From a virus (taxonomy: Duplodnaviria; Heunggongvirae; Uroviricota; Caudoviricetes), in the IMG/VR virus record IMGVR_UViG_2651869782_000034: a stretch of DNA of 48,134 nt, one strand, 5' to 3'. The translations under genes were made by a program, and so were the position numbers. The first letter of the stretch is position 1, and each line of letters opens with the position of its first letter. This document shows positions 15,765 through 48,134 of the stretch, one piece after another. The notes under the pieces were generated by a model, which worked only from the letters and a program-made list of their open reading frames with translations, did not search any database and was not told where the DNA came from.

Positions 15765-15839
15765 GGGTCAGTCGTATAAAGGTCATTACGGAAGGCTGTT
15801 AACCTTCTTATCGTGGTTCGAGTCCACGCTGTCCCGCCA
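15765..15839 (+). tRNA. tRNA-Asn-like (anticodon GUU), slightly degenerate stems
   Basis: Anticodon arm GAAGG-CTGTTAA-CCTTC, T arm CGTGG-TTCGAGT-CCACG, 3' CCA; one mismatch each in acceptor and D stems. Confidence 0.5.
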
Positions 15840-15844
15840 AATAT

Positions 15845-15920
15845 GCTGGTTTAGCTCCAATGGTAGAGCAGTCGCCTTGTAAGCGAATGGGTAGCGGTTC
15901 AAGTCCGTTAACCAGCACCA
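15845..15920 (+). tRNA. tRNA-Thr (anticodon UGU)
   Basis: Perfect 7-bp acceptor stem GCTGGTT/AACCAGC, D arm GCTC..GAGC with GG, anticodon loop CTTGTAA, T loop TTCAAGT, discriminator A plus CCA. Confidence 0.75.
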
Positions 15921-20368: not shown

Positions 20369-22567
20369 ATGGCAGAAAAAAAGATGACTGACTGGCATCG
20401 CAAGGTGCTGTGCAACTTTGATAATGCCTGGTCAGCAACGCAGGATATGCGTGAGCAGATTATTGAGGCTCAACGTTTCGTCCGGGTGTCCGGCGCACAG
20501 TGGGAAGGCAGCACAAACGCTGGTTACTCATTTGATGAAGGCAGGTTTGAGCATTACCCGCGCTTTGAACTGAATAAGATTGCCCGTGAATGTGATCGCA
20601 TCATTGGCGAGTATCGACAGAATCGCATCAGCGTTAAATTCAGGCCGAAGGATGACAAGGCATCGGAAGCGTTAGCCGAAAAGATGAACGGCAAATTCCG
20701 CGCTGATTATCAGGAAACATCCGGTGGCGAAGCGTGTGATAACGCATTTGATGATGCTGTAACGGGCGGATTCGGTTGTTTCCGCATGTGTGCTGATTAC
20801 GAAGATGAAATGGATCCGAGTAACGAGCAGCGACGCATCAGCCTTCTTCCTGTTTACGACCCGGCGACATGCGTCTTCTTCGATCAGGACAGCAAGCAAT
20901 ATGACCGCTCTGATGCTATGTGGGCTATGGAAATGTTCTCCATGACGCCTAAAGCGTTCGAGGCTGAATACCCTGATTCCATCGCGGCAAGCCTTTCTCG
21001 TGATGACACTGGTACTCAGTATGACTGGTCAACGCCTGACGCCATCTATGTTGGACGCTACTACGAAGTCCGCATAGAGAAGGTGAAGCTCACAGCATGG
21101 CGTAACCCTGTCAGCGGAGAAACGGCAATCTATGATGAAGAGCAAATCAAAGATATTGTCGACGAGCTGACCGATGGTGCATTCGAACTGATTGGCGAGC
21201 GAACGGTGAAGAAACGCCGAGTTTATTGCGGTCTTCTGTCTGGCGCTGAATGGCTGGAAGAACCGAAGCGTATTCCGGGCGAACATATTCCTCTCATCCC
21301 GGTATATGGGCGTCGTTCATTTGTTGATAATCAGGAGCGAATCGAAGGCCACGCAGCAAAAGCGATGGATGCACAGCGTCTTGAGAACCTGATGGTTTCC
21401 ATGATTGCAGATAACGCCACTCAGGCTGGCGGTGATGGCATTCCTATCGTGGATGTTGATTTCATTCCCGGCCCATTAATGAACCACTGGGCAGAGAGGA
21501 ATAAGAAAAGACCTGCAGTTCTTCCTATGACCAGCAAGAAGGACAAAAACGGAACGGTCATTTCAGAGGCTCAGGTTGCTGGCTGGACACCTCCGACACA
21601 AATGCCTCCAGCTCTTGCAGGGCTATTGCAGTACACCGGAACGGCTATTCAGCAAATTACAGGTGCGTCGCAGCTTGAGAACATGCCGAGCAACGTCGCT
21701 ACCGATACCGTTGATAGCATCTTTAACCGGATGGACACGCAGTCCTATATCTACATGGACAACATGGCTAAATCCATGCGCCGTGCTGGCGTCGTGTGGC
21801 TTTCTATGGCTCGTGAAGTCTATGGCAGCGATACGCCAATGCGCATCGTTAATGAGGATGACAGCGATGACGTGGCGCTGATGACTGGTGAAGTGGTTGA
21901 CCGTCAGACAGGGCAGGTTATCGCGCTTAACGACCTTTCGCAGGGTAACTATGAAGTGACTGTCGATGTCGGTCAGTCGTTCGCTACTCGCCGTGATGCA
22001 ACGGTTAAGTCGTTACTTTCCATGCTGGCACTTATCCCGCCAGGAACGCCGAAGCATGACCTTGTATCGTCGATGATTCTCGACAATATGGACGGCGAAG
22101 GGATGGACGACCTGAAAGAATACAACCGCAATCAGTTGCTTCTGTCTGGCGTTATCAAGCCGAGAACGCCTGAAGAACAGCAAATGGTTGAGCAGGCGAA
22201 ACAACAACAGGCCAGTCAGCCAGATCCGGCTATGGTTGCAGCGCAAGGTCAGCTTCTGGCTGGTCAGGCTGAATTGCAGAAAGCGCAGAACGAACAGGCA
22301 GCCATTCAGGTTAAAGCATTCCAGGCACAGACTGATGCTCAGGTTGCAGCGGCAAATGTTGTGAAAATCCTCGCATCTGCCGATAGCCAGCAGAAATCTG
22401 ATATCCGCGAGGCTCTGAAACTGCTCGGACAGTTCCAGCAACAGCAAGGAGACAATGCCCGTGCTGATGCAGAGCTTGTCCTGAAAAGTCAGGCACAGGG
22501 CCATGCGCAGCGCATGGACATCAGCAGCATCCTGCAAAAATCAACTCAGCAACAACCACAGCAGTAA
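20369..22567 (+). CDS. Portal protein (P22 gp1-like)
   Basis: 732 aa; blocks such as KRRRVY, GEHIP.IPV and Q-rich C-terminal barrel parallel P22 portal. Confidence 0.9.
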   Translation: MAEKKMTDWHRKVLCNFDNAWSATQDMREQIIEAQRFVRVSGAQWEGSTNAGYSFDEGRFEHYPRFELNKIARECDRIIGEYRQNRISVKFRPKDDKASEALAEKMNGKFRADYQETSGGEACDNAFDDAVTGGFGCFRMCADYEDEMDPSNEQRRISLLPVYDPATCVFFDQDSKQYDRSDAMWAMEMFSMTPKAFEAEYPDSIAASLSRDDTGTQYDWSTPDAIYVGRYYEVRIEKVKLTAWRNPVSGETAIYDEEQIKDIVDELTDGAFELIGERTVKKRRVYCGLLSGAEWLEEPKRIPGEHIPLIPVYGRRSFVDNQERIEGHAAKAMDAQRLENLMVSMIADNATQAGGDGIPIVDVDFIPGPLMNHWAERNKKRPAVLPMTSKKDKNGTVISEAQVAGWTPPTQMPPALAGLLQYTGTAIQQITGASQLENMPSNVATDTVDSIFNRMDTQSYIYMDNMAKSMRRAGVVWLSMAREVYGSDTPMRIVNEDDSDDVALMTGEVVDRQTGQVIALNDLSQGNYEVTVDVGQSFATRRDATVKSLLSMLALIPPGTPKHDLVSSMILDNMDGEGMDDLKEYNRNQLLLSGVIKPRTPEEQQMVEQAKQQQASQPDPAMVAAQGQLLAGQAELQKAQNEQAAIQVKAFQAQTDAQVAAANVVKILASADSQQKSDIREALKLLGQFQQQQGDNARADAELVLKSQAQGHAQRMDISSILQKSTQQQPQQ

Positions 22568-28784: not shown

Positions 28785-30134
28785 ATGGCTACGTGGCAAC
28801 AGGGTATTAATTCTGGTGGTTTTCTGGCTGGCATCGGTACGCAAAATGAGAATGCGCCAAAGGCAAGCGACATTAACGCAGCGCTTGGTCTGATCCGCGA
28901 AAACAATGAATTGGCTCGCTCAGGTGCAAATAACGTTGGTCTGACCGCGTTACGTGGTCTGGCTGGAGTTGCTGATATTTATAAGCAGGAACAGCAACAG
29001 AAAGCGATTAGTGCGTTCAATAAGGTTCACGCTGATGCATGGGCTTCTGGTGATCCATCGGGACTATTTAAGTTTGCCCAGGAAAATCCAGCGTTTGTTG
29101 CACAGGCACAACAGGCGTTTTCCGGTCTTAATGAGCAGCAACGCAACGATATGGGCGATTTAGCCATGAGGGCTAACGTCGCTCTTTCTCAGGGACCGGA
29201 AGCCTACAGTAAATTCATTACTGACAACAAGGACAGGTTAAATCGCGTTGGTGCTAATGCTGACTGGATGATTCAGACAGGTATCCAGAATCCAGAGCAG
29301 CTATCACACATGCTGACTACGATGTCTCTCGGTGCGCTTGGGCCAGAAAAGGCGTTTGCTGTTCAGGACAAGATGGTTGGTCGCCAGCAGGAGCAGCAAA
29401 GAATTAACGAAACCATTCGCAATAATGACATGACGAATGCGAGGGCTATTAGGGGGCAGGATCTTTCCTATAAGGCTCAAATGGCAAGACTGAATCACGA
29501 CAAGTATGTGTTTAAGCAGTCACAGGCGGCCCTTGAAAGAGCAGGGCAACTTCAGGATATGGATGTTTTGTCTCTTAACTCACAGATAGCAGCGACGGGA
29601 ATTGATCCTCTAACCGGTAAAGCTGCAACGTCAGCCAGAATGTCTCAGGCTAAGAGATGGCTTGATGGCAACAATAATTACAACAATGCGTTGATTACTG
29701 GTGAGCGAGGGATAGAGAAAATAGATTCTTTGCTTGGTAAGAAGGAGCTTGAAGGTATCGGTCGCTTCGAAGGAAGAAATATAGATGGCTTCACAAGTGC
29801 TGAAGGGCTTGCAAACCGTAATGCGATAGAAGAATTAAAGTCGGGTGCGTTTGTCCAGAACGTGCAGACTATGCGAGGTATGGGTAGCCTCTCCAATGCT
29901 GAAGGCCAAAAACTGGAAAACCTGATCGCGAAACTCGATATAACACAGCCTGAAGAGGTCGTCAGAAAACAGTTATCTGAAATCCGATCGCAATATTCTG
30001 TATTTCAAAAGGTTGCAGCAAGGGAGGCTGAATCAATGGGATATAGTTCATCAGGTTATGACACATATGTTAGTGAGCGAAAATCAGGAAGCGACAGCAA
30101 TAAGTCCGGTTTCTCGTCTTTATGGGGTGATTAA
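28785..30134 (+). CDS. Ejection protein gp20-like
   Basis: 449 aa; gene order. Confidence 0.65.
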
Positions 30135-32302
30135 TGGCTAAAGCATGGAAAGATGTTATCGCTTCTCCACAGTATCAGGCGTTAACTGAAGAACAGAAAG
30201 CACAGGCTCAAGCGCAATATTTTGATGAGGTTGTTGCCCCTAAGGCTGGTGACAAATGGGCTGAAGCAAGAGATCAGTTTTATGCAGCATACCCTCCACC
30301 TCAGCAGCAGAAAGAAGAACCATCATTGATGCAACAAGCTGGTGATTGGCTCACAGGTGGTCAAAGTGCAGGGCAAATTGCAGAACAGGCTGGTCGTGGT
30401 CTGGTAAACATACCATTTGACGTATTACAGGGTGGCGCAAGTCTGATTAATGCAATCAGTCAGGGGCTTGGTGGGCCAAAAGTATTGGATGATGTCTATC
30501 GTCCAGTCGATCGACCGACAGACCATTACGCGCAAGCCGGTGAAACAATTGGCGGGTATCTCCTGCCAATTGGTACAGCGGCAAAAGCTGCTGGAGCGCC
30601 AGCAAAGCTCGCTGGAGATATCGGTTCCGCAGGAAACATGATTGCAGGTTCTCTTGCTGATGCTGCAAATCAGGAGGGCGACTTTGCACAAAATGCTGCC
30701 ATTAACGGTGGTATAAATATTGGTGCTCAGGGGATACTTTCTGGGGCTGGAAGGATCTTAACCTCTAAATCACCTCAAGTTCTTGGTGGCGGGGCAATAA
30801 ATTCCGCTGCTGATGTTTCGAAAATGGCAAAGTCTGGTACAGGAAGAGAGATTATTGCCAGACAGTCAGCTAATGTGTCAGACGAAATAGCAAAAGCAGC
30901 AGATACTGCTGGAATAGATATCAACGCATTAACTCCTGGCATGAGATCAGGTAGTCGTGGTCTTGCTCAGGCGGAGGGGATTCTGGCGTCAAAGCCCGGA
31001 ATTACACAGGATGCACACACCAAAGCATTCAGTGAAATAGAGTCGAAATTTAACTCAGCATTGGATGAGTTTGGGGCTGAAGCAGGAACTGCATCAGAAA
31101 AAAGTGCAGCCATAAAACAAAGGGTTTTGGCAAGTATTGATAAAATGAAAAATTCAGAAAAGGCCGCATGGGATAGCGTCCGCTCCACGATGCCTGACGC
31201 AAAGGCCAGAATGTCAAACCTGAACGCTACAATTCAGGGTGATATTTTGGCCGGCATGCCGCTAACTCCTGAGATGAAACAATTCGCATCTGCTTATGCT
31301 AAAACTAGTAAAAAAGGAATCACGTTTGATGCCATGAAGGCATGGCGAAGTAAACTTGCTGACGCAGAGCAGAAGTATATAAGGTCTGGTGAGGCAAATA
31401 CGGCAAGGCGCATGGCTGAGCTTCGTGATGCAGCAACGGAAGATATGCGCATAATGGCTCAAAATGGCGGTTTTCTTGATGACTGGCAAAAAGCTAATGA
31501 TCTGTCAAAAGCAAGATTTACAGCACAAGAACAGGCTGAAGCAGCGTTTGGTAGAGACCTTGCAACTGATCAGTTGGTAACTAATGGCTCTAAGGCGTTG
31601 CAGGGTTCAGCAAAAAGTGGAACAGGTCAGTTCCATAAAATAATAAGCGCCCTACCTGAGTCGGAACGCGCGCCAGCAATTGCATCAATATTACAAGATG
31701 CGGTATCGCAAGGGGTACGCGGAGGTAAGTCTGAAGAGGCTGGAATTAAGCATATCGCGACTATTCTTACCCCACAAAACGTGAAGGCAATTAGTCGATA
31801 TTCTCCAGAGCTTGGTAGGATTGCCAGGGGGTTTGGAGAACTTGCAAGAGCAGCAACAAAGCCACTTCGATATGTTGAACAAACAGGGCGCTCTATGCCA
31901 GCCATTAGCACTCTTGAGAATGGCCTTCATCCAGTTTTAGAGAGCGTATTGTCTGGCGCTTTTCCAACCGCTGGCGCTATCGCAGGGTTCTCTGGAGGAG
32001 GTGTTATTGGAGCAATAGTGGGTGGCGCTGCAGGTGGAGCAATTGATGCAATAGCAAAAGGATCGATAGCGAAATTATCCGCAACCAGAAGTGGTCGTTA
32101 CGCTATTGAAAAGGCTGTTCAAGAGGCGACAAAGGCAGTTAAAGTTGGGGCAAGTGATGGCGCATTAGCGGCGGCGGAACGCAGATTTATGGCAAATAAG
32201 GCCGCCGTAAAAGCAATTCGCGATGCACTAGGAAACGAAGAGTTCCAGCGTTTGTCGAGGGCTGGGATTGTGGCATCGCTAAGCGGAATGGCACAGGATT
32301 GA
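30134..32302 (+). CDS. Ejection protein gp16-like
   Basis: 722 aa; start overlaps upstream stop; gene order. Confidence 0.65.
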
Positions 32303-32319
32303 GGTGACGCCATGGATGG

Positions 32320-32769
32320 CTATTTTTTAAGGTAATAATCATCAAAATCGCAAGAAGCGGATATCACAGAACTTGAATCCATAGAAAAAGACAGGGTTTC
32401 GCATGCCTTTCCGGCCTGATGATATGCATGGATATCACCGGATACATATCCTCCTGTAGAAAACAACGATTTTTCACCGTTTTTTTCTACAAGAATGTGC
32501 TTATCTGAATCATTAATAAACCAAATGGAAATAGAGTGACTTTCGCCAAGGTCTGTTCTATTGAACACCTTAGGTTGGGTACCCTTGACAGCATTTTCGG
32601 CTCGCATAATCAGTTCAGCGCTTTTTTTGCTATTTTTTTGTTCTGTATAGATTTTGTCTGCCACAAAATAAACAATGGCAATGGCTAACAAAGATAGGGA
32701 AATCAGCAATGCCTTTTTAATCAATTTTTTGGCATCCCTGTAAATCTCAACTGATAATTTTTCACTCAC
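32320..32769 (-). CDS. Single-pass membrane protein (moron; sieA-position superinfection-exclusion candidate)
   Basis: GTG start 5 nt after AAGGAGG; TM helix LLISLSLLAIAIVYFV then about 110-aa extracytoplasmic domain; opposite strand to late operon. Confidence 0.55.
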   Translation of the reverse strand: MSEKLSVEIYRDAKKLIKKALLISLSLLAIAIVYFVADKIYTEQKNSKKSAELIMRAENAVKGTQPKVFNRTDLGESHSISIWFINDSDKHILVEKNGEKSLFSTGGYVSGDIHAYHQAGKACETLSFSMDSSSVISASCDFDDYYLKK

Positions 32770-32832
32770 ACCAACCTCCTTAGTTTTGTGCAGGATACCA
32801 GATGATAATGTGTAGTTGGAGTAGCGCGGTTG

Positions 32833-32928
32833 TAATGCAAGCATTTTGTTTTGGTTTTATGCTTGCTTGTATGTGTGTACAGTGCATATAATGCAAGCAT
32901 ACATCACAATAAAGGTGCTTGCATTATG
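32833..32928. promoter_or_regulatory. Four copies of near-palindromic motif ATGCAAGCAT / ATGCTTGCAT in a divergent promoter region
   Basis: taATGCAAGCATt (32833-44), ATGCTTGC (32859-66), taATGCAAGCATa (32889-900), GCTTGCATta (32916-26) overlapping ATG 32926. Confidence 0.55.
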
Positions 32929-33918
32929 ACTGAAAAGAAAAGTGGCGAAGGGAAAGCTAAGGGCGGTATCGCTCGCGCAAAGTCGCTGACTAAAGAGCAG
33001 CGTTCTGAAATAGCAAAGAAAGCAGCGGCTGCAAGATGGAAGGATAAACCATTAATTGCTACGCATAAGGGATCGTTCCAGCATGAATTCGGGATTGATG
33101 TTGAGTGCTATGTGTTAAATGATGATAACAAAACTGCCGTTATTAGCCAGAGAGGCATGGGAGAAGCGATTGGTCTTGGCGAAGGTGGCAGCAGGTTGCC
33201 AAAGTTTATTCAGGGGAAAACTATTTCTCAGTATATCGGGCATGAATTAAGGGCAAAACTTGAAAATCCTCTTATTTTTCAATACAAACAGGCGGGCACG
33301 AACACTCCAGCTAATCCTGTAATACATGGCTACGATGTAACAATATTAATTGATTTATGTCGAGCAATCTCTAATGCTAAAGCTGAAGGTAAGTTGCTTT
33401 CCAGTCAGGAAGGGATTGCTAAGCAAGCCAGAATCATTATTGATGCATCAGCCAAGGCGGGCATTCAGGGGCTTGTTTATGCTTTGGCAGGGTATGACAG
33501 AACAAAAGAAGAGGTAATTCAAGCATATAAGCGATATGTTGCTGAAGAGGCTCGTGAGTATGAAAGAGAGTTCACCCCTGAACTTTATGAGCATTGGTAT
33601 CGTCTGTATGGTATAGACAAACCAGTTAGAGGGCGACCATGGGCGTTTAAATATCTTACGATAGATCACATTTATTACCCATTAGCCAGAAGTGAAGGAA
33701 AGGTATTTAATTTAGCAAAAACGTCAAAAGAAGAAAAAGGCAGCAAAAACGATAAAATACACCAGTTTTTATCAGAGGTTGGAGTTAAGGCTCTTAGAAC
33801 CCAAATAGGTAAGGTTACTGGTATTGCAATGGTTTCTGATACTCGAGAAGAGTATGAGAAATACATAGATGAAAAGGTTATTGGACAAAGAACCATAGAC
33901 TTAAAAGATAAAGAATAA
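32926..33918 (+). CDS. Hypothetical 330-aa protein with basic N-terminal segment (possible DNA-binding)
   Basis: MTEKKSGEGKAKGGIARAKSLTKEQRSEIAKKAAAARW; start codon lies inside an operator-like repeat. Confidence 0.55.
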   Translation: MTEKKSGEGKAKGGIARAKSLTKEQRSEIAKKAAAARWKDKPLIATHKGSFQHEFGIDVECYVLNDDNKTAVISQRGMGEAIGLGEGGSRLPKFIQGKTISQYIGHELRAKLENPLIFQYKQAGTNTPANPVIHGYDVTILIDLCRAISNAKAEGKLLSSQEGIAKQARIIIDASAKAGIQGLVYALAGYDRTKEEVIQAYKRYVAEEAREYEREFTPELYEHWYRLYGIDKPVRGRPWAFKYLTIDHIYYPLARSEGKVFNLAKTSKEEKGSKNDKIHQFLSEVGVKALRTQIGKVTGIAMVSDTREEYEKYIDEKVIGQRTIDLKDKE

Positions 33919-33924
33919 GAAAAT

Positions 33925-33946
33925 CCCACCGTCAGGTGGGTTTTTT
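33925..33946. terminator. Bidirectional rho-independent terminator
   Basis: CCCACC-gtca-GGTGGG followed by TTTTTT, preceded by AAAA on the other strand. Confidence 0.65.
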
Positions 33947-33971
33947 ATAAGGAGTAATCATGATTTACCCA

Positions 33972-34508
33972 TCAAACAACCCACCAGTTTGCCTGATTGG
34001 ATGCCAGCCTTGCAGTTTTTATGGAATTAATTATGCCATGCTCAAGAGCCTTGTTAGCATCCAAAATGGTCGAGTCTGCTATCAGGGATGCCCACCTAAT
34101 ATGGGTTCCGATGTCGATATTGAACGTCTCAACGAAGCGATCAAGATCGTTATCGAGGCATTTCCCGTACTCTCTCAATCTGGCATGGTCGGCGGCTGGG
34201 GAGGCAAAGCACCATAATAGAGGATGTAACAGGAATCTTGATAATGGGTTTGCGAAACGTTCTGAGCCAGCCAGGAAAACGATATTAGCTATGGATTCAA
34301 CATTGCTTATGTTGTGAGTTCTAACGGTAACAGGGAGTGACTTAAGAAAGTTATACGCAGTAAAGCCAGCGGCAGTTTCCCCTCCCTGACTTGATATATG
34401 GATATTTAATTCAGTTGCGCCTTGAGATAATGCGGTGAGACAGTGGTTCTGAAGTTGCCCAACAGTGGCAGTGTTAACGGGGCATAAGAAATGAATTGTG
34501 TGCAGCAT
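33972..34508 (-). CDS. Clp-fold serine protease (ClpP-like, short form)
   Basis: HISSQGG vs ClpP INSPGG; ES-IANIVFLAG aligns to the ClpP active-site Ser; LLHPL aligns to MIHQP His; ATG overlaps mnt stop (TAATG). Confidence 0.7.
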   Translation of the reverse strand: MLHTIHFLCPVNTATVGQLQNHCLTALSQGATELNIHISSQGGETAAGFTAYNFLKSLPVTVRTHNISNVESIANIVFLAGSERFANPLSRFLLHPLLWCFASPAADHARLREYGKCLDNDLDRFVETFNIDIGTHIRWASLIADSTILDANKALEHGIINSIKTARLASNQANWWVV

Positions 34509-34756
34509 TATTTTTCATCCTTAGCATACATGGTCTTTAGCGTCTCAAGCAGCGCCTCTTTGAATTTGTCAGCTTCTTGCTGAGCAAATGACTCAACTGA
34601 CTTTGGCGACCTATCTTCATCAATCGCGGCTTGCAAAATCATGACGATCTCGGAGTTAACAGAGCGACCATTTTTTGATGCTCTGACAGCAAGAGCCTCG
34701 CGTAAAGATTCAGGGATTCTTACCGTAGTTGGAGAAATTGACACACCCTTTGCCAT
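34508..34756 (-). CDS. mnt: Mnt-like ribbon-helix-helix repressor
   Basis: RIPESLREALAVRASKNGRSVNSEIVMILQAAI and C-terminal coiled coil parallel P22 Mnt; divergent from arc. Confidence 0.8.
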   Translation of the reverse strand: MAKGVSISPTTVRIPESLREALAVRASKNGRSVNSEIVMILQAAIDEDRSPKSVESFAQQEADKFKEALLETLKTMYAKDEK

Positions 34757-34779
34757 ATCACACCTTTGGTATTCAATTT

Positions 34780-34834
34780 GATAGCAAAGTGTATGCAAAA
34801 AAATTTTGACTAGATATACTCACTTTGCTATCTT
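34780..34834. promoter_or_regulatory. immI control region: inverted 12-bp repeats GATAGCAAAGTG / CACTTTGCTATC flanking candidate Pant
   Basis: Repeats at 34780-34791 and 34821-34832; -35 TTGACT 34806-11 and -10 TATCTT 34829-34. Confidence 0.55.
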
Positions 34835-35285: not shown

Positions 35286-36164
35286 ATGAAAAGTATAGCA
35301 AAGGCACAAAACGATTTCACCATCTTCAAATTCGGCGACAGTGAAATCCGCGTCATCAACAAGTGCGGTGAGCCGTGGTTTGTAGCTAAAGATGTTTGTG
35401 ATGCTTTAGCTTTGACTAACTCACGCAAGGCGCTTACTGCACTTGATGACGATGAAAAGGGAGTAACTTTAAGTTACACCCTTGGTGGTGAGCAGAATCT
35501 AAGCATTGTGAGCGAATCAGGTATGTATACATTGGTTCTGCGCTGCCGCGATGCAGTCAATAAAGGTTCAGTCCCGCACAAATTCCGCAAGTGGGTAACA
35601 GCAGAAGTTCTGCCTTCAATTCGCAAACATGGCGAGTATGTTAAAGGAAAGAAAACCACTGTTGAGGAAAGAACACCGCTACGCGATGCAGTAAACATGC
35701 TGGTAGGAAAGAAAGGACTTCGCTATGACGATGCATACAATATGGTTCATCAGCGTTTTGGTATTGACAGCATTGATGAACTTTCAATTGAACAAATCCC
35801 GCAAGCTGTAGAGTACATCCACAGGGTAGTGCTTGAAGGTGAGTTCATCGGCAAACAAGAGAAGAAAACCAACGAGCTTTCTGCAAAAGAAGCAAACAGC
35901 CTTGTATGGTTATGGGATTATGCCAACCGCTCACAGGCATTATTCCGCGAACTGTATCCGGCGCTAAAACAAATTCAATCGAACTATTCCGGCAGATGTC
36001 ATGACTGCGGTTATGAGTTCTCCCGTATTATCGATATGGCGAGAGATGTTTTAATCAACCATACACGAGATGTTGATATTAATGAGCCAGACGGACCAAC
36101 GAATCTTTCCGCATGGATGAGACTTAAGAATAAAGAATTACCTCCTTCAGTACATAACTACTGA
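35286..36164 (+). CDS. ant: Antirepressor Ant (Bro-N domain)
   Basis: Bro-N motif [30 protein letters not shown]; follows arc as in P22 immI. Confidence 0.85.
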
Positions 36165-36207: not shown

Positions 36208-36264
36208 TGCCCAAAATTCACCGTAGCCATGCTGCGGCGATTCCTTGTATCTGGAGCAAATTAA

Positions 36265-38427
36265 ATGACAGACATTACAGCCAATGTTGTAGTGAGTATG
36301 CCTTCGCAACTCTTCACTATGGCGCGCTCTTTTAAAGCCGTAGCCAATGGCAAAATTTATATCGGAAAAATTGACACTGACCCGGTAAATCCAGAAAACC
36401 AGATCCAGGTTTATGTGGAGAACGAAGATGGCTCTCATGTTCCTGTTTCGCAACCAATCATCATTAACGCTGCTGGTTACCCGGTATATAACGGACAAAT
36501 TGCCAAATTCGTTACTGTACAGGGCCATTCTATGGCTGTTTATGATGCATACGGTGCGCAGCAGTTTTATTTCCCTAATGTGTTGAAGTATGAGCCGGAT
36601 CAATTAAGGTTGGAGCTTGAATCATCTGGTGGAGCAGGATTGATAGGTGGTGTTTCGAAGCCTATTACTTTTTTTGGTGCTATTGGTGATGGATTAACAA
36701 ACAATACGCAGGCATTTAACGATGCAGAGATATTAGAATTCAATGACATCTACATTCCTGATGGTGTTTATAATGTAAATAATATTAACTTAAATAAGAG
36801 ATATTGGGGGCCTGGCATAGTAGTGATTAATTACCAGACTGAATATTCTGGCTCTGGTGTTAACGACATGACCGTGTCAGGAATATACAATGGACAGCAA
36901 GATCTAAATGCAATTGTAAGAATAAAAGAAGCTTCAAATCCTGATAAGCTTGAATTCAGTACAGATAATGGAGTTACATGGCATGACACGATAGACGTGT
37001 ACAATCCAATCGATGACAGTGTATCTCCGCAACCAATCGTAATACTTGCAGGCGGGGTGGATTTTTTCGTGAGTGGATTGAAGATAAACTTTTCTTCAAC
37101 CACTGGACATACAGTAAATGACTCATGGTCATTTTTCATTCCTTCCAATCCATCAGTAATAAACACGGGAAGTGGCAGCATCGTTAAATCAGGAAGCGTT
37201 ATTTTTAATGTTAGCGGAAACAATGATACTAATACTTCCGCTGGAAAAGACTCATTAGGCGGTGGAAACGTAGGAGCTAACAATACCGCATATGGGTGGA
37301 AGAGTTTGCACTCAAACACTACAGGATACGCAAATACCGCGTCTGGGATTCAGTCTATGGAAAACAATAAGACTGGTAAAAACAATTGTGCATACGGTGC
37401 TGATTCTCTAAGAGCTAACGTATCTGGTTCTGATAACGTAGCGGTTGGGGTCTTTGCGTCCGGAGCAAACACAACCGGGTACGGTAACACTGGACTTGGT
37501 AACGATGCCAATAGGTACAATGAAACAGGATTCGGAAATACCGCAGCGGGTGTGCAGGCACTGTACCACAACAAGGCCGGTAATGAGAACACAGCTTTCG
37601 GTGAATACGCATTACGCGGAGGAAATTCCAGCCTACCTACGGGAACATCCATTCAGTATTCCGTCGCTGTAGGAGCTAAAGCCGGTTTCAACGCGTTAGG
37701 TAATAATAATACAGCTATAGGTTACGAGGCGCTATATTCTGCATCAGGATCTGATAATGTTGGTATTGGATTCGATGCAGGGTTTAAAGTAACGGCTGGT
37801 GCTTTCAATGTATTTTTAGGTTCTAATTCTGGTAACGGGTCAGAGCAGGCTACAGATGTGACAAACTGCGTCCTTATCGGAGATAATACAAAATCAACCG
37901 GAAGTAACGCAGTAGCTATCGGTAGTGGGGTAATTGCCGCTCAGAATACTGTAGCTATAGGTAATAGTGAGCATGAATTATTCTTGCATTATGGGAAATT
38001 TATACCACAAATTGATAATGCTTTTGATATTGGTGGGCCGGATGCGAGATATAAAACAATATATGCAACTACAGGAATGATAAATACATCAAATGAAATG
38101 TTGAAAACAAAACTAACAGACATTGATGTTGCTGAAAAAAAAGCTGCACTAGAAATAAAAGATAATATTAAAAAGTTTAAGATGCTGGATTCTGTTGAGG
38201 TAAAGGGATTTGATGGTGCTAGGTGGCATTTTGGTGTTGGAGCTCAAACTGTTGGTAATATAATGAGGAAGCACGGACTTGATCCTAGTAAGTATGGGTT
38301 TTGGTGTCACGATAAAACGCATCGCGAACACATGACTGGAAATATAGATATCTTTTGTGAAAGTTATGGTATAAGATATGACGAACTTGCAATGTTTATA
38401 TTGGCATCAATATCTTTATGTGAATAA
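36265..38427 (+). CDS. Tailspike: P22-type head-binding N-domain, repeat-rich beta-helix, C-terminal S74-like chaperone domain
   Basis: [11 protein letters not shown]...[19 protein letters not shown]...VTVQGHSMA matches P22 gp9 N-domain; NTAxGxxAL repeats; SNEMLKTK near C-terminus. Confidence 0.9.
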
Positions 38428-38499
38428 ACTTTGTAAATGAAGTGAATTGCAAATCCTTGTACTTGATTGCAAGGCTTTGTGCTCTTCGATAATGGTTAA

Positions 38500-38519
38500 G
38501 GTGGATCACTCCACCTTTT
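38500..38519 (+). terminator. Candidate terminator ending the late operon
   Basis: GGTGGA-tcac-TCCACC followed by TTTT. Confidence 0.5.
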
Positions 38520-39150
38520 CATCAATCCAGTCCGCCCACCACTGCATCATTTCTCTGCGCTTAACGTAGCGGATGCCTCACTATCACACGGTGATAGTCC
38601 ATTGCTGCTTTGAAGAATGGATAGAGAACTGAGGATAAAAAGATATCCCAAAACCCAAAATCTCATCTTTAGGATTTGCAGAAAGGTAGGCGTGAACAAA
38701 TACCTGCGCATGAAAACGGAACTAGTCCAGATGTGATGTTTGTGGTGATCACATACATCATTAACGATGCTCGTTATGGTGAGTTTGATGACTACCCGCT
38801 GAAGTGAAAATTGTGTTGTGTACCAAATTGCGTACCAAACTAAAATCACAAATCATGAAACCCTTGTTCATGGCGGTTCTTAGGGGTGTTGCGCGTAATC
38901 GTGAAACAAAAAGGTAGATTGTTGCTTACCGTCATTCATCATTAGGTTAAATCCGTTATTTCTGCTGTCTGCCAGAGTATCAAATATCACCGTGCTAATC
39001 AGCTTTAGCGCGACAATTTGGCAGCGAGTGGCAACAGATCATGTCAGATAAAAATGAGGTAGTAGTCACATTTTCTTGCACTTTATTCCAGCCAGTTCAT
39101 AAGTATTTCCGTAAAAAGAACAGCTATTTGAAACACCTGAGGGTTTGCTG

Positions 39151-44216: not shown

Positions 44217-44585
44217 TTAATTTTTCATTTCGGGCGTCGGATAAACAGCCAGATAAACGTAACCACAACTGCTGAGGGTATCGGCTTTGCAGGTCAGCCC
44301 TTTTGCATACAGCGTGACGGTATGCTGATGGCGGGGATTCAGTTCACCGCTGGTGAGCATGAGTTCCAGTTGTTTCATCAGCAGCGGAAAGGCCTGGTCC
44401 AGGTGGTACGCATCTGCATCGCTGAACAGGCCTCTGATACCGGCGCGGTCGGCAAGGTAATGCAACCGGTTACCCTCCTGCACCAGACGTGCCCCGAAAC
44501 AGGGCGTCACGGTGCAGGGCAGCCCCCACCAGGGGCGGTCGTGATTGTCGTCGGGAAGTGTTGTCCCGGGGAGTGTGTCTGACAC
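44217..44585 (-). CDS. cbeA: CbeA (YeeU) antitoxin
   Basis: 122-aa ORF recognised as CbeA. Confidence 0.85.
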   Translation of the reverse strand: MSDTLPGTTLPDDNHDRPWWGLPCTVTPCFGARLVQEGNRLHYLADRAGIRGLFSDADAYHLDQAFPLLMKQLELMLTSGELNPRHQHTVTLYAKGLTCKADTLSSCGYVYLAVYPTPEMKN

Positions 44586-44658
44586 GATAAAATCCTTACA
44601 GAAAATCGGCTAAGAATGGTCCGGTAGTGGCGATAATTCTGCTCATCAGAATTCCCAC

Positions 44659-44880
44659 TCAGTTCAGGGTGACGCTCATCAGCCGGACATACGGACCAAA
44701 ACTGTCCTTACGGCGTTCAGCAAACACGGCCAGCACACCGGGAATATCCTGCACTTCACGACCGGTATACGCTTCAGCACTGCCGTGCCAGCGGTATTTA
44801 CCGGTACAGAACGGAAAAAGACGGGATGTCGGATGTTGTTGGTGAATACGCATGGCTTCACCACGGGTGATAATTTTCAT
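44659..44880 (-). CDS. yeeT: YeeT (DUF987)
   Basis: 73-aa ORF recognised as YeeT. Confidence 0.8.
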   Translation of the reverse strand: MKIITRGEAMRIHQQHPTSRLFPFCTGKYRWHGSAEAYTGREVQDIPGVLAVFAERRKDSFGPYVRLMSVTLN

Positions 44881-44942
44881 AATGGGATACCTCTGAAGAC
44901 AGAAGATAAAAGTGAAAACAGGTGTGATGTGGTTGTGAAGGG

Positions 44943-45419
44943 TTAAAGCAGACCATGTTCGGCAAAGGAGAAAACCTGGTTGCCACCGACTATCAGATGG
45001 TCCGGCACCCGGATATCCACCAGGCCCAGTGCCTGTACCAGACGTTCGGTGATAAGCCGGTCTGCCTTACTGGGTGTGACTTCACCGGACGGGTGATTGT
45101 GTGCCAGTACCACGGCAGCGGCATTGTGGTACAGGGCGCGTTTAATCACTTCCCGGGGATGGACTTCCGTGCGGTTGATGGTGCCGGTGAAGAGGGTTTC
45201 ACCGGCAATCAGCTGATTCTGGTTGTTCAGATACAGCACCCGGAATTCTTCACGCTCCAGTCCCGCCATGTTCAGAATCAGCCATTCCCGTGCTGCACGG
45301 GTGGAGGTGAAGGCCACGCCGGGTTCATGAAGATGGCGGTCCAGGGTTTTCAGGGCCCGTTGAATGAGGCTGCGCTCGCCGGGCGTCATCTCTCCGGGCA
45401 GAAAGGAAAGTTGTTGCAT
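44943..45419 (-). CDS. yeeS: YeeS, RadC-like JAB-domain protein
   Basis: JAMM-like motif HNHPSGEVTPSKAD; start MQQLSFLPGE. Confidence 0.8.
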   Translation of the reverse strand: MQQLSFLPGEMTPGERSLIQRALKTLDRHLHEPGVAFTSTRAAREWLILNMAGLEREEFRVLYLNNQNQLIAGETLFTGTINRTEVHPREVIKRALYHNAAAVVLAHNHPSGEVTPSKADRLITERLVQALGLVDIRVPDHLIVGGNQVFSFAEHGLL

Positions 45420-45434
45420 TGTGCTTCTCTCCAT

Positions 45435-45914
45435 TCAGTCGATGATGCGCATAATGGCGCTGCATTCCGGATGCTGCAGGGCGTAATCCCGCAACCGGTA
45501 ATAATGAACCGTCATGGCATAATTCTCCGTACGACAGGCATGATGACTGTACGTCATCAGACAGGCGGTAATACCGGCGGCTTCCGGGCTCATTTCTGCG
45601 CGGTTACCGTTCATGGCATTGAACAGTACCCATGTTTCGTCATCATCATCATCCGGTTCGGGTGCCATAAATGCCCCGCCGTTGTTCAGGGTGTACAGAT
45701 TCCAGATACCACCGCAGTAGTCTTCGCACAGACGGTCCATCCAGCCGAAGACACGGGGCTCCAGGGTCACCCACTGTGGAATGAGGCCAAAATGCTGCGG
45801 CCAGAAGCTGATGCGCTGTTCATCAGGGACGAGGCTGGCAACCAACTGAGGCGGATTATTCTCTGGTGTTGTAGCTGAATAAATTGTGGGGGTATTCTGA
45901 GAAACGGTTTTCAT
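45435..45914 (-). CDS. Antirestriction protein (ArdB/KlcA-like)
   Basis: 159-aa acidic protein in the usual position upstream of radC-like gene in CP4 elements. Confidence 0.65.
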   Translation of the reverse strand: MKTVSQNTPTIYSATTPENNPPQLVASLVPDEQRISFWPQHFGLIPQWVTLEPRVFGWMDRLCEDYCGGIWNLYTLNNGGAFMAPEPDDDDDETWVLFNAMNGNRAEMSPEAAGITACLMTYSHHACRTENYAMTVHYYRLRDYALQHPECSAIMRIID

Positions 45915-45995
45915 GAGATAACTCCTTAAATAACAAATAAATGTGTGTTTTTCAGGAACGAAAGCTGAATGATTCCCTCACTCAGGGAAACGGCA

Positions 45996-46814
45996 TCAGC
46001 GCAGGCTCTCCAGCATCGTTTCTGCCATCACCCACAATGCGCGATTGAGCTTAATGTCGGTATCAATGCTGTGAATGGCCCGGGTATGGATACGTTTTCC
46101 TTTTGCACTGCGACCGGAAATCCCGCCTTTCAGCATATTCTCCTGGATGGTCTGATATGCGCTCCACAGGTCCTTACCGTAATCCTCCCGGCGTCGCGGC
46201 GTCAGAATGTCGGCGGTGGTGACGGGCTGATGTTCGTCACCATAACGGTAAGTCAGTGCCGCCTGTGCCAGCGCCTGGCGTGCCGGTGGCGGCAGGACCA
46301 GCGACTGCATGGCATCACGCTTCTCCTCTATCCGGTCAAACACGCCCACCACCTCGTAAGCCCCTTCGATAACTTTCTCCACTACATTTCCCCGGTGTGG
46401 AACACGCACTTCCCCCAGAGACTGGCCACAGACGCCCCCGTTCTGGCAGACGAACCTGAAGTAACCCGGCAGCATCTGGTAGCTGGAGGTACCGTCATGA
46501 GAGTTGAGCAGAATAATTTCAGGGACATGTTCTCCGTTTATCTCTCCGGCCCGCCGCAGACGCAGCATGTGTTTTGTGTATCCCCGGCGGCCCGGGTCGC
46601 GCACACGGGTCTGGCAGGCGAAGAACGGCTGAAAGCCTTCCCGCTGCAGATTTTCCAGGACGGTAATGGTGGGAATGTACGCATACCGTTCACTGCGGGA
46701 GGTATGCCGGTCTTCCCCAAAAATACTGGGTACATAGTGCATCAGTTCTTCGTGTGTCAGCGGACGGTCACGGCGTATCTGGTTTACATGACCAAAACGA
46801 CTTGCTAATCGCAT
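45996..46814 (-). CDS. DUF932-family protein
   Basis: 272-aa ORF in the position of DUF932 genes of CP4-type elements. Confidence 0.6.
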   Translation of the reverse strand: MRLASRFGHVNQIRRDRPLTHEELMHYVPSIFGEDRHTSRSERYAYIPTITVLENLQREGFQPFFACQTRVRDPGRRGYTKHMLRLRRAGEINGEHVPEIILLNSHDGTSSYQMLPGYFRFVCQNGGVCGQSLGEVRVPHRGNVVEKVIEGAYEVVGVFDRIEEKRDAMQSLVLPPPARQALAQAALTYRYGDEHQPVTTADILTPRRREDYGKDLWSAYQTIQENMLKGGISGRSAKGKRIHTRAIHSIDTDIKLNRALWVMAETMLESLR

Positions 46815-47024
46815 GATTTGCTCCTTATGAATGAGTTAGCGGTATAAATGAAAAAGCTGCGTCTCCCGGAGAAGACGCGGCCTGACGGGTGAAATGAATA
46901 AGGTTTATTGTCTGAGAGGCCTTTCACTGGCGAGCCACGCATTAAGCGGCTTTCCGGTAACAATGGCTGGGGCTGTATTTACCTTTGATATTAATAATGT
47001 GCAGAGAAACGCATGGTTTACTCC

Positions 47025-47435
47025 TTAGATTTTAAGTTTGTCCTGGGCTACAACGACAGGTTTTCCGGATGTGTCGATGACTCCTACCGTCGGTACGCCA
47101 TTTTTGATTTCGAAGAACGGTTTGTTGCTACCTGAGCACAGTTGATTGTCCCCGTATTCAATCATTTGTGCTTTCCCGGTTTTCAGGTTAACTACCGAGA
47201 CAGTGTAGTCGTAGCACCAGGCACCACCACGTTCAAGCACGAAAACATAGCTGTTATCTTTATAGTTGAACTGATTCTTTGTCTGGCAATTCATACCGTC
47301 AATTTCGGTACAGGAAAACGCTTCTGTAGTATTAACGTATTTGATGTTATTTGGCAGTTTTACTTGTTTCGCAGTAGCGAAGACAGAGAACAGAATAGTT
47401 ACAGCAACGAGTAAAGTTTTGATAAAAGTTTTCAT
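47025..47435 (-). CDS. Secreted hypothetical protein
   Basis: Signal peptide MKTFIKTLLVAVTILFSVFATA; four Cys. Confidence 0.5.
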   Translation of the reverse strand: MKTFIKTLLVAVTILFSVFATAKQVKLPNNIKYVNTTEAFSCTEIDGMNCQTKNQFNYKDNSYVFVLERGGAWCYDYTVSVVNLKTGKAQMIEYGDNQLCSGSNKPFFEIKNGVPTVGVIDTSGKPVVVAQDKLKI

Positions 47436-47450
47436 GATAGACTCCTTAAA

Positions 47451-48134
47451 TTAGTTAACCGCAGCTACGTAGTTTTTCACCAGATACGCGAATTCATGCA
47501 CGCCAATTTCACCGAACCAAACCAGGTAGGCCGGGTCATCTAAACCAAAGTAACGGTAGCCAACAACTTCATGGGTTTTTGGGTTATAGAGTGTTACGAT
47601 AAAGTCCCAGCCGCAGGTATTGGCTTTGCAACCGTCGCCCTGGAACCAGACTGTACCGTTAATGTTTACTGGCGTGATACCTCCACCAGGGCCATCCATA
47701 TAGCCGCCTTTACCGAACATGCCGCTCAGTCCGACCGGTTTTAATGCTTTGTCGATAGCGGCTTTGTAGGTAGCGTCACCTTCGTACAACTCGTACGTTG
47801 ATGGACACGCTCCAGGTTGTTCAGCCCAGGCTTCTGGGTTACAACTAAGAGCTTGTTTTACGGTAGCCGCTTCTGCGTTAAAGTTAAAGCCCGTGAACAG
47901 AACCGCCAGAAATAACATAAGGGTATGTAAACGTTTCATTGTAAATATTCTTCCGTTGTAAATGGCGCTGGAAAATTTCTCATCAGTGAAACCTTCCGGA
48001 AGTTTCCCCCCCTTGTATGATGTATATCGCCAGTATTTTATTTCATCCCGGCTGTAATTTTTATATTCCCCGGCACGTGCAATAACGCTGACCAGAGATA
48101 TAAGGCTCATTAATAACTTTACAGGTAATTTCAT
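47451..48134 (-). CDS. Secreted hypothetical protein (start uncertain: ATG 48134 at window edge or internal ATG 47936)
   Basis: ORF begins at the last base of the window; internal MKRLHTLMLFLAVLFTGFNFNAEA is a second signal-peptide-like segment. Confidence 0.4.
   Translation of the reverse strand: MKLPVKLLMSLISLVSVIARAGEYKNYSRDEIKYWRYTSYKGGKLPEGFTDEKFSSAIYNGRIFTMKRLHTLMLFLAVLFTGFNFNAEAATVKQALSCNPEAWAEQPGACPSTYELYEGDATYKAAIDKALKPVGLSGMFGKGGYMDGPGGGITPVNINGTVWFQGDGCKANTCGWDFIVTLYNPKTHEVVGYRYFGLDDPAYLVWFGEIGVHEFAYLVKNYVAAVN

Follow-up and report, generated by a model that had tools for sequence, protein, structure and literature searches.

A P22-type tailspike built from swapped modules and ending in a predicted self-cleaving chaperone, encoded by an Escherichia prophage

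The tailspikes of the phages P22 (gp9), Sf6 (gp14) and HK620 are right-handed beta-helix endoglycosidases that do without a cleaved S74 chaperone. They share three things with the tailspike described here: the head-binding domain, the position of the gene and the type of phage. The order of parts in this spike is that of the endosialidase tailspike of CUS-3 (siaK1, Lederbergvirus), in which a P22-type head-binding domain is followed by a foreign receptor part, a stalk and a self-cleaving chaperone. The CUS-3 spike is longer (981 aa against 720 aa), is annotated as an endosialidase whose activity, according to the note on its record, has been experimentally shown, and is likewise encoded immediately after an antirepressor gene. 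A homologous chaperone also terminates pb1, the L-shaped tail fibre of T5 (PDB 4uw8; PMC4690869), where the mature part is a “bullet” domain in place of the solenoid found here, and where the whole sits on a siphovirus fibre and not behind a P22-type head-binding domain. A host-recognition spike made of swapped modules is an already known design, and the general rule is that the anchor follows the genus of the phage while the receptor-binding part follows the serogroup (PMC10408124).

The window, by which we mean the whole stretch of 48,134 nucleotides that was analysed, carries the tailspike as a single ORF with an ATG start and a TAA stop, and RefSeq already lists an identical protein under WP_052893117.1 (“phage tailspike protein [E. 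coli]”). Upstream lie genes for the P22 portal and for injectosome translocase/ejection proteins, and directly before the tailspike gene come an Arc-like ORF and a Bro-N/P22_AR_C antirepressor gene, which we take to be the immI (arc/mnt/ant) region; dacD-sbmC-yeeA sit downstream. The gene closes a P22-like morphogenesis and ejection cluster, after the immI region, in the layout also seen in APEC O2-211 and CUS-3, and it belongs to a P22-like prophage adjoining dacD on an Escherichia chromosome. PADLOC gave no matches among the accessory genes upstream. The cluster of proteins at 90 % identity or more has 47 members, among them intact copies of 720/721 aa in E. coli and E. albertii, and the full-length gene was present in only 2 of 5,426 complete E. 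coli genomes. From the ribosome-binding site to the stop codon, the features of the gene are these:

36253..36256, plus strand: Shine-Dalgarno sequence GGAG, separated from the ATG by 8 nt (from inspection of the sequence)
36265..38427, plus strand: tailspike coding sequence, 720 aa and stop, predicted mass 76.4 kDa
36265..36603, plus strand: P22-type head-binding (particle-attachment) domain, aa 1-113 (Pfam PF09008, full profile, E=5.3e-67)
36604..36663, plus strand: left recombination junction and linker, aa 114-133, placed by the change of DNA matches
36664..36834, plus strand: short “FGAxGDG” pectin-lyase-type entry segment, aa ~134-190 (HMMER)
36838..37179, plus strand: all-beta domain of ~100 aa with an Asp-box (STDNGVTW), aa 192-305, from an unnamed, widespread family
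37225..37869, plus strand: Asn/Gly-rich beta-solenoid with a 17-residue period, aa 321-535 (repeat xxNTAxGxxALxxNTTG)
37873..38088, plus strand: stalk before the chaperone, aa 537-608 (Pfam PF12219, End_tail_spike), carrying Asp584, Arg595 and Thr608
38086..38091, plus strand: codons of the predicted scissile bond Thr608-Ser609, from alignment to T5 pb1 and EndoNF; also the right-hand junction relative to the homolog P0003
38089..38424, plus strand: predicted intramolecular chaperone (Peptidase_S74, Pfam PF13884), aa 609-720, 12.8 kDa

The anchor is of a familiar kind. The head-binding region is identical to that of P22 gp9 at 86 of 118 positions (73 %) and to that of Sf6 gp14 at 105 of 118 (89 %), and CUS-3 matches aa 1-120 at ~97 % identity. 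A first-pass annotation of this DNA had likened the N terminus to gp9 and found the remainder unlike the P22 endorhamnosidase. The full-profile PF09008 match and the 73 % identity bear out the former statement, and the latter agrees with the search of PDB sequences, where chains of the P22, Sf6 and HK620 type align to aa 1-119 only and the body of a gp9-like right-handed beta-helix endoglycosidase was not found beyond aa 119. On these alignments anchor and position make the protein a P22-type tailspike, while its body is not orthologous to gp9.

At the DNA level, matches to other P22-like spike genes end at nucleotides 335-368 of the gene (~345), and nucleotides 366-1703 are ~88 % identical to the tail-protein genes of ST4 (Gamaleyavirus) and P817 (Nouzillyvirus), the encoded proteins sharing 84-86 % aa identity over aa 116-608. 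This switch at nucleotide ~345/366 demonstrates the swapped receptor-binding module on a P22-type anchor that had been proposed at first pass. The linker carries a motif, LRxxL...GAGLIGG, common to homologs with a PF18668 anchor; the metagenomic P0003 and P0005 (the 833-aa cluster, equal in length to P817) have the PF18668 TSP1/Gp66-type anchor instead of PF09008 and a chaperone of a different lineage (27-63 % identical). Against P0003, the closest homolog, identity is 97-100 % across aa 206-610 and 27-77 % in the flanks, and at about aa 610 it falls from 97-100 % to 27-63 %. To judge from these identities, the chaperone is of other origin than the mature part. One recombination junction coincides with the predicted chaperone cleavage site, and a junction exactly there fits a view of the chaperone as a generic, exchangeable folding cassette.

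The mature receptor-binding module turns up again on three unrelated phage backbones, those of ST4, P817 and a 58-kb contig that has a tape-measure gene. P22-like prophages of E. coli and of E. albertii carry it as well, as do four IMG/VR viral contigs (27-45 kb), the last known to us by the module match only. The mature part has moved among four very different backbones: P22-like, N4-like, T1-like and the 58-kb tape-measure contig. No functional characterisation was found for the tail proteins of ST4, P817 or P0003. ST4, named STEC P4 in its own paper, produces spot lysis on several serogroups and possesses two tail proteins, which does not allow a receptor to be assigned. The main text of the survey of anchors and serogroups (PMC10408124) mentions neither P817 nor ST4, and no description of this module was found there.

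Between anchor and stalk, the receptor-binding module is itself mosaic, with three or more sub-modules. An exhaustive HMMER search set the entry segment (residues 19-75 of the fragment) apart as a sub-module of its own; it is 63-77 % identical to P0003/P0005, and another homolog, P0012, matches PF12708 at profile positions 2-51 of 213 only. The family models recognised no extended right-handed beta-helix domain of the pectin-lyase fold. Other proteins carry several copies of the Asp-box domain that follows, arranged in tandem, and Pfam has no family for it, also when run on proteins rich in Asp-box modules. The third part is the solenoid, consisting of 8 regular rungs (aa 321-456) and, after an interruption, ~4 degenerate ones. 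The first pass had noticed many Asn/Gly-rich repeats of the form NTAxGxxAL, and the NTAxG motif indeed recurs at ten positions (aa 323, 340, 357, 374, 391, 408, 425, 442, 482 and 498), with a residue autocorrelation of 0.266 at lag 17 against 0.095 in shuffles (z=8.8) and a further peak at lag 34 (z=7.3). The polar residues D414, Y418, Q431, Y434 and R451 are invariant and stacked on rungs 6-8.

In aa 120-535 Pfam, NCBIfam and PHROGs gave no catalytic families, and NCBIfam gave no family for the whole protein. Neither the profile of the Asp-box domain nor that of the repeat found a solved homolog among PDB sequences; the best match of the repeat profile (E=0.2) was to hexapeptide-repeat proteins, so that at sequence level neither adhesin heads nor left-handed beta-helices are connected with it. 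An AlphaFold2 (AF2) monomer model has a mean pLDDT of 65, with the chaperone part poorly modelled, and comparison of the whole monomer with the PDB (Foldseek) yielded generic beta-helix matches at TM-scores of ~0.1, which were uninformative save for weak matches to chaperones. The heads of trimeric autotransporter adhesins (UspA1, 3pr7; BpaC, 7o23; YadA_head repeats) are among the closest known systems, and remote homologs bear the label “trimeric autotransporter adhesin”; adhesins end in a membrane-anchor barrel, whereas this tailspike ends in a cleavable chaperone and repeats with a period of 17 residues. YadA_head (PF05658) has no match in the tailspike at E<=1 in Pfam, P0012 passes the cut-off of that family on its last rungs (27.2 bits against 25), and the repeat profile A3 retrieved no adhesin heads from PDB sequences.

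Chaperones of this kind sit behind a triple-beta-helix stalk. The stalk here covers positions 90-160 of the 160 in the PF12219 profile (28.5 bits, cut-off 25) and aligns to the stalks of EndoNF, T5 pb1 and CUS-3; its pLDDT is below 50 in the monomer model. The chaperone segment is low in GC (0.34). A Peptidase_S74 domain search, the check suggested at first pass, gave a Pfam match at aa 609-672 (23.4 bits, cut-off 22), and solved chaperones match aa 573-716 in PDB sequences: 7y5s (E=1e-18), 6eu4 (2e-15), T5 pb1 (4uw8, 3e-13), 9vvr, EndoNF (3gw6, 5e-10) and 3gud (6e-4). The stalk and chaperone of CUS-3 are 31 % identical over aa 531-683 (E=6e-15). Foldseek pairs the chaperone part with 3gw6 chains and 3gud at probabilities of 0.69-0.89, but at E=0.04-0.09 and in a low-confidence part of the model. 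The S(D/N)xxLKxN signature claimed in the first-pass annotation holds in part: SNEMLK begins at Ser609, the exact start of the Pfam match, and the final N is absent, the sequence here being S-N-E-M-L-K-T-K.

A mechanism in which a Ser-Lys dyad with supporting Asp, Arg and Thr lets such domains (the class of EndoNF, T5 pb1 and phi29/GA-1 gp12) cut themselves has been proposed for T5 pb1 (PMC4690869). All five published mechanism residues are present here (D584, R595, T608, S609 and K614), at the same spacing as in T5 pb1 (Asp-25, Arg-14, Thr-1, Ser, Lys+5). Ser609 is aligned with Ala in the T5 pb1 and EndoNF chains, the Ala in the T5 pb1 chain being the S1264A substitution (PMC4690869). Within the family Ser609 and Lys614 are conserved in 18 of 18 members and Arg595 in 16 of 18. 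C-terminal autoproteolysis is as well supported as sequence allows, and its predicted products are of 63.6 kDa and 12.8 kDa.

These observations suggest the following mode of action. The head-binding domain, as its homology shows, attaches the trimer to the tail hub. The chaperone would trimerise first and template the folding of stalk and solenoid, and a correct trimer would place Arg595 of the neighbouring chain beside Asp584 and Thr608. Lys614 would then activate Ser609 and the Thr608-Ser609 bond would be cut, releasing the chaperone and leaving the mature 63.6-kDa chain; this step is proposed because it can be transferred from the mechanism of T5 pb1 and K1F. The mature solenoid and Asp-box part would recognise a surface glycan, O-antigen or capsule, and set the host range, a role assigned because the protein occupies the tailspike slot and because exactly this part has been transferred horizontally between unrelated phages. 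We give this overall reading, of a P22-type anchor, foreign modules, a self-cleaving chaperone and glycan recognition by the mature part, a probability of about 0.75.

Two readings would take the gene out of this model, and both appear improbable. The one we credit least takes the protein for an endosialidase tailspike of the K1 type, such as CUS-3 and K1F possess, a suggestion prompted by the Pfam matches to Peptidase_S74 and to End_tail_spike (“Catalytic domain of bacteriophage endosialidase”), by the STDNGVTW Asp-box and by the resemblance of the head-binding domain and the stalk/chaperone to CUS-3. The End_tail_spike match, however, is confined to the last third of the profile, at aa 537-608, which align just before the CUS-3 chaperone, and similarity to CUS-3 is not detectable between aa ~160 and ~530 of the tailspike; for some 370 residues in the middle the two proteins are unlike, the Asp-box beta-domain and the 17-residue solenoid standing here instead. 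The tailspike has one Asp-box in a 100-aa domain and not the six-bladed beta-propeller with several Asp-boxes of the K1F/CUS-3 type, and the Asp-box profile met sialidases in the PDB at the level of the motif only (E>=0.002), with no significant stretch, so that sialidase activity could not be argued from it. The endosialidase reading is effectively refuted. Slightly less improbable, and still very unlikely, is that the prophage is cryptic and the gene decaying and without function. Some relatives have a longer chaperone, and a comparison with P0007 places an internal deletion near aa 685; the Pfam S74 score clears the cut-off by little, and no integrase was seen in the window. Against decay stand the intact 720-aa ORF with its good ribosome-binding site, the retention of every mechanism residue, the intact copies from E. 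coli and E. albertii in the 47-member cluster, and the series of P22-type morphogenesis and ejection genes that the window carries.

A closer question is what the mature part does once it has met its glycan. Our working assumption is an adhesin-like middle in which binding dominates. To our knowledge every characterised P22-like tailspike is an enzyme, which argues against a purely binding module, and a catalytically active triple-stranded beta-helix has a precedent in the streptococcal phage hyaluronidase HylP1. The middle may, then, be a true depolymerase or modifying enzyme of polysaccharides whose active site, on the 17-residue solenoid, has escaped recognition, so that the spike would digest its way through O-antigen or capsule as other P22-like tailspikes do; we regard this as possible, at well under even odds. 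It accords with an entry segment typical of pectin-lyase-fold depolymerases, and with the stacked, invariant D414, Y418, Q431, Y434 and R451, which could be an active site. The same slot holds O-antigen-specific enzymes in P22-like phages and in Gamaleya- and Nouzillyviruses (PMC10408124). Yet the profile searches of Pfam, NCBIfam, PHROGs and the PDB gave no catalytic family, the rungs are highly regular, short (17 aa) and contain only ~6 % acidic residues, the pectin-lyase likeness spans just ~50 profile positions, and the invariant patch, adjoining the point where the solenoid is interrupted, could have a structural role. We also put forward, tentatively and as something that may well prove wrong, a more specific proposal: a P22-like podovirus with a non-depolymerising, adhesin-type fibre, made of a 17-residue solenoid related to autotransporter-adhesin heads and an unnamed Asp-box beta-domain, or else a solenoid on which these five residues form a new glycan-cleaving site.

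Current understanding of tailspike modularity is not overturned by this locus. No relative of its central module is solved or characterised, and the module contains a confidently folding domain family that is absent from Pfam. Either form of the last proposal, if true, would represent a new structural class among the receptor-binding proteins of P22-like phages and would define the Asp-box module as a new, widespread domain family. The spike probably determines which strains are open to infection by this temperate phage, and its receptor-binding part, as a portable host-range cassette, could help to engineer phages against avian and other E. coli.

The tailspike gene is a single uninterrupted frame of 720 codons running from an ATG to a TAA, with a GGAG located 8 nt 5' of the ATG, and is surrounded by P22-type virion genes.

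Tailspike gene and its P22-type neighbors
20369-22567: P22 portal
28785-30134: injectosome translocase
30134-32302: 722-aa ORF, corresponding in size and position to the SK0189 gene annotated "P22-gp16 family phage DNA ejection protein"
35286-36164: Bro-N/P22_AR_C antirepressor, immediately 5' of the tailspike gene with an Arc-like ORF
36265-38427, + strand: tailspike ORF

Residues 1-113 of the spike match Pfam Head_binding across the whole profile (E = 5.3e-67), and gap-free alignments of the head-binding segment with solved domains give 86/118 identical residues (73%) for P22 gp9 and 105/118 (89%) for Sf6 gp14. Past residue ~119, a PDB sequence search gave no alignment to P22, Sf6 or HK620-type chains. 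The first-pass annotation had described a P22 gp9-like N-terminus followed by a remainder unlike the P22 endorhamnosidase, and both descriptions hold.

An exhaustive HMMER search sets residues ~134-190 apart as an independent sub-module which is, judged by its sequence, an entry segment typical of pectin-lyase-fold proteins; in the homolog P0012 the match of this segment to PF12708 is limited to profile positions 2-51 of 213. It is followed at residues ~192-305 by a module of about 100 residues with one Asp-box (STDNGVTW), which elsewhere occurs in multiple tandem copies, with up to 11 matched stretches in the library search and six copies in the homologous protein P0124 on a local phmmer re-scan. 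A Pfam scan of the spike and of proteins rich in module copies assigned it to no family, and an AlphaFold2 model built from a 50-sequence alignment is all-beta (pLDDT 92, pTM 0.80). The profile search of PDB sequences returned only Asp-box-motif matches to sialidases, without a significant stretch, and these were rejected as evidence of sialidase activity.

Residues ~321-535 consist of eight regular 17-residue units (xxNTAxGxxALxxNTTG), a loop and then about four degenerate units, with the NTAxG motif at positions 323, 340, 357, 374, 391, 408, 425 and 442 and, after the break, at 482 and 498. Such periodicity lies well outside what chance would give: at a lag of 17 the residue autocorrelation reaches 0.266, compared with 0.095 in 2,000 shuffles (z = 8.8), and lag 34 yields z = 7.3. 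In the AF2 monomer model each unit forms one rung of short strands (pLDDT 74-87). Because the repeat profile found no solved relatives among PDB sequences, the Pfam scan gave no YadA_head match in the spike, and P0012 alone passes the YadA_head model, on its last rungs, we call the modeled region a 17-residue beta-solenoid resembling adhesin heads in fold, a label that does not imply family membership. Five polar residues, D414, Y418, Q431, Y434 and R451 (window 37504-37617), are invariant in 18 of 18 aligned relatives and occupy equivalent positions on rungs 6-8, right before the repeat break; they could form a binding, catalytic or structural site, or stabilize the break.

Residues 537-608 match Pfam End_tail_spike over its final third (profile positions 90-160 of 160; 28.5 bits, cut-off 25) and align with the region directly ahead of the chaperone in the endosialidase tailspike of the P22-like phage CUS-3; they are taken to be a putative stalk. 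Despite the Pfam name "catalytic domain", a sialidase propeller was rejected here, the CUS-3 counterpart being that pre-chaperone region. Residues 609-720 are the predicted intramolecular chaperone. The Pfam Peptidase_S74 match (residues 609-672, 23.4 bits, cut-off 22) begins exactly at Ser609, the start of the motif SNEMLK, and over its last 150 residues the spike can be aligned with the PDB chains 7y5s (E = 1e-18), 6eu4, T5 pb1 4uw8, 9vvr, EndoNF 3gw6 and 3gud, all of which contain a chaperone. The S74-like C-terminal motif reported from the first reading is thus borne out by domain search, as its NTAxG repeats are by ten positions and the lag-17 signal; all features it listed are present, and its interpretation of the spike is supported.

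In the PDB alignment Ser609 lies opposite Ala in both the T5 pb1 and EndoNF chains; in T5 pb1 this Ala is the S1264A substitution, made to block cleavage.(PMC4690869) The K1F mechanism was carried over to T5 pb1, where Arg1250 of the neighboring chain lies between Asp1239 and Thr1263, Ser1264 is activated by Lys1269, and the Thr1263-Ser1264 cut requires a correctly formed triple beta-helix.(PMC4690869) Asp584, Arg595, Thr608, Ser609 and Lys614 of the spike have spacings identical to T5 pb1 (−25, −14, −1, 0, +5), and among the 18 family sequences Asp, Ser and Lys never vary, with Thr in 17/18 and Arg in 16/18. We infer autoproteolysis at Thr608-Ser609, for which the computed products are 63.6 kDa (residues 1-608) and 12.8 kDa.

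DNA similarity with other P22-like spike genes stops at gene nt 335-368, and nt 366-1703 are ~88% identical to genes of the Escherichia phages ST4, a G7C-like Gamaleyavirus,(PMC9404725) and P817 (Drexlerviridae, genus Nouzillyvirus), the only cultured phages in which the receptor-binding module was found. The closest protein, P0003, is encoded on a 58-kb metagenomic contig with a tape-measure gene. Its identity to the spike is 63-77% over residues 116-205, 97-100% over 206-610 and 27-63% over 611-720, and since it falls past residue 610, the right-hand junction (window 38086-38091) is placed at the predicted cleavage site. This coincidence indicates that the chaperone (GC 0.34) and the mature part (GC 0.46) have separate ancestry; the chaperone is nearest to that of another homolog, P0007 (73-87% over residues 626-685). 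An extra junction probably lies near residue 310, as homolog P0006 shares the solenoid (83-100%) without the Asp-box domain (~50%). The window as a whole has a GC of 0.47; within the spike gene GC varies, at 0.43 in the head-binding domain, 0.38 over residues 116-330, 0.46 in the repeats and 0.32-0.34 in the stalk end and chaperone. The homologs P0003, P0005, P0007 and P0008 carry the Pfam PF18668 Tail_spike_N anchor, and other relatives have unrelated N-termini. This mosaicism is the general pattern of E. coli tailspikes, in which the anchor tracks phage genus and horizontal transfer spreads the receptor-binding part.(PMC10408124)

The Arc-like ORF and antirepressor 5' of the spike are read as the immI region, and Escherichia dacD, sbmC and yeeA lie downstream. 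Many E. coli genomes hold a P22-like prophage with a different spike at the dacD site, the best covering just 69% of a 20-kb query. The full-length spike gene occurs in only two of 5,426 complete E. coli genomes, APEC O2-211 and GPEC60-33-648 (95-96% identity), the APEC O2-211 copy being located at tRNA-Arg with IntS. RefSeq lists the identical protein as WP_052893117.1 under the name "phage tailspike protein [Escherichia coli]". The ≥90% identity cluster containing it has 47 members from E. coli and E. albertii, and the receptor-binding part recurs at 95-100% identity in four viral contigs from IMG/VR that are 27-45 kb long.

Elsewhere in the window, tRNA-Asn(GTT) and tRNA-Thr(TGT) are adjacent at 15765-15839 and 15845-15920, ~2.6 kb 5' of the first large + strand ORFs ahead of the portal gene. 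No integrase was seen within the window. The spike stop is separated from dacD by ~720 bp of non-coding or unannotated DNA (38428-39144), whose sole ORF (100 aa, 38547-38849, − strand) is doubtful; the hairpin at 38500-38515 (GGTGGATCACTCCACC) and the TTTT after it resemble a spike terminator. As the host flank at 44217-48134 aligns with the CP4-44-type island gene region of strain SK0189 (cbtA/cbeA toxin-antitoxin pair, yeeT, and JAB-domain, antirestriction and DUF932 genes), the prophage adjoins another mobile island. An accessory block at 32320-34798, between the large ORF 30134-32302 and the Arc-like ORFs, gave no PADLOC matches and may be superinfection-exclusion or defense cargo.

ORFs of the accessory block
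174 aa, − strand: without family
355 aa, + strand: P63C-domain protein
178 aa, − strand: ClpP-like protease (PF00574, E = 2e-11)
96 aa: abuts the ClpP-like gene, Arc/ribbon-helix-helix-like by the look of its sequence alone

In the mechanism we propose, the head-binding domain would attach the trimer to the tail, the chaperone would nucleate the trimer and then cleave itself off at Thr608-Ser609, and the mature solenoid and Asp-box part would recognize a surface glycan and so determine host range. The spike may also degrade or modify that glycan, as its module sits in the enzyme's slot in four backbones and it has both the pectin-lyase-type entry segment and the invariant polar patch; however, no catalytic family is detectable, and its best structural neighbors, as modeled, are adhesin heads and flagellar proteins.

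Among known tailspikes the CUS-3 endosialidase comes nearest as a precedent: it shares the head-binding domain (~97% over residues 1-120), the putative stalk plus chaperone (31%, E = 6e-15) and the gene position, whereas its middle is unrelated. Since Peptidase_S74 domains terminating non-enzymatic, modular fiber proteins are also widely documented,(PMC4690869, PMC12220804) the spike is an ordinary modular tailspike, an uncharacterized protein of known architecture that databases already list by a generic name. What is new is its central module, which joins an unnamed Asp-box domain family to a 17-residue solenoid without a solved relative.
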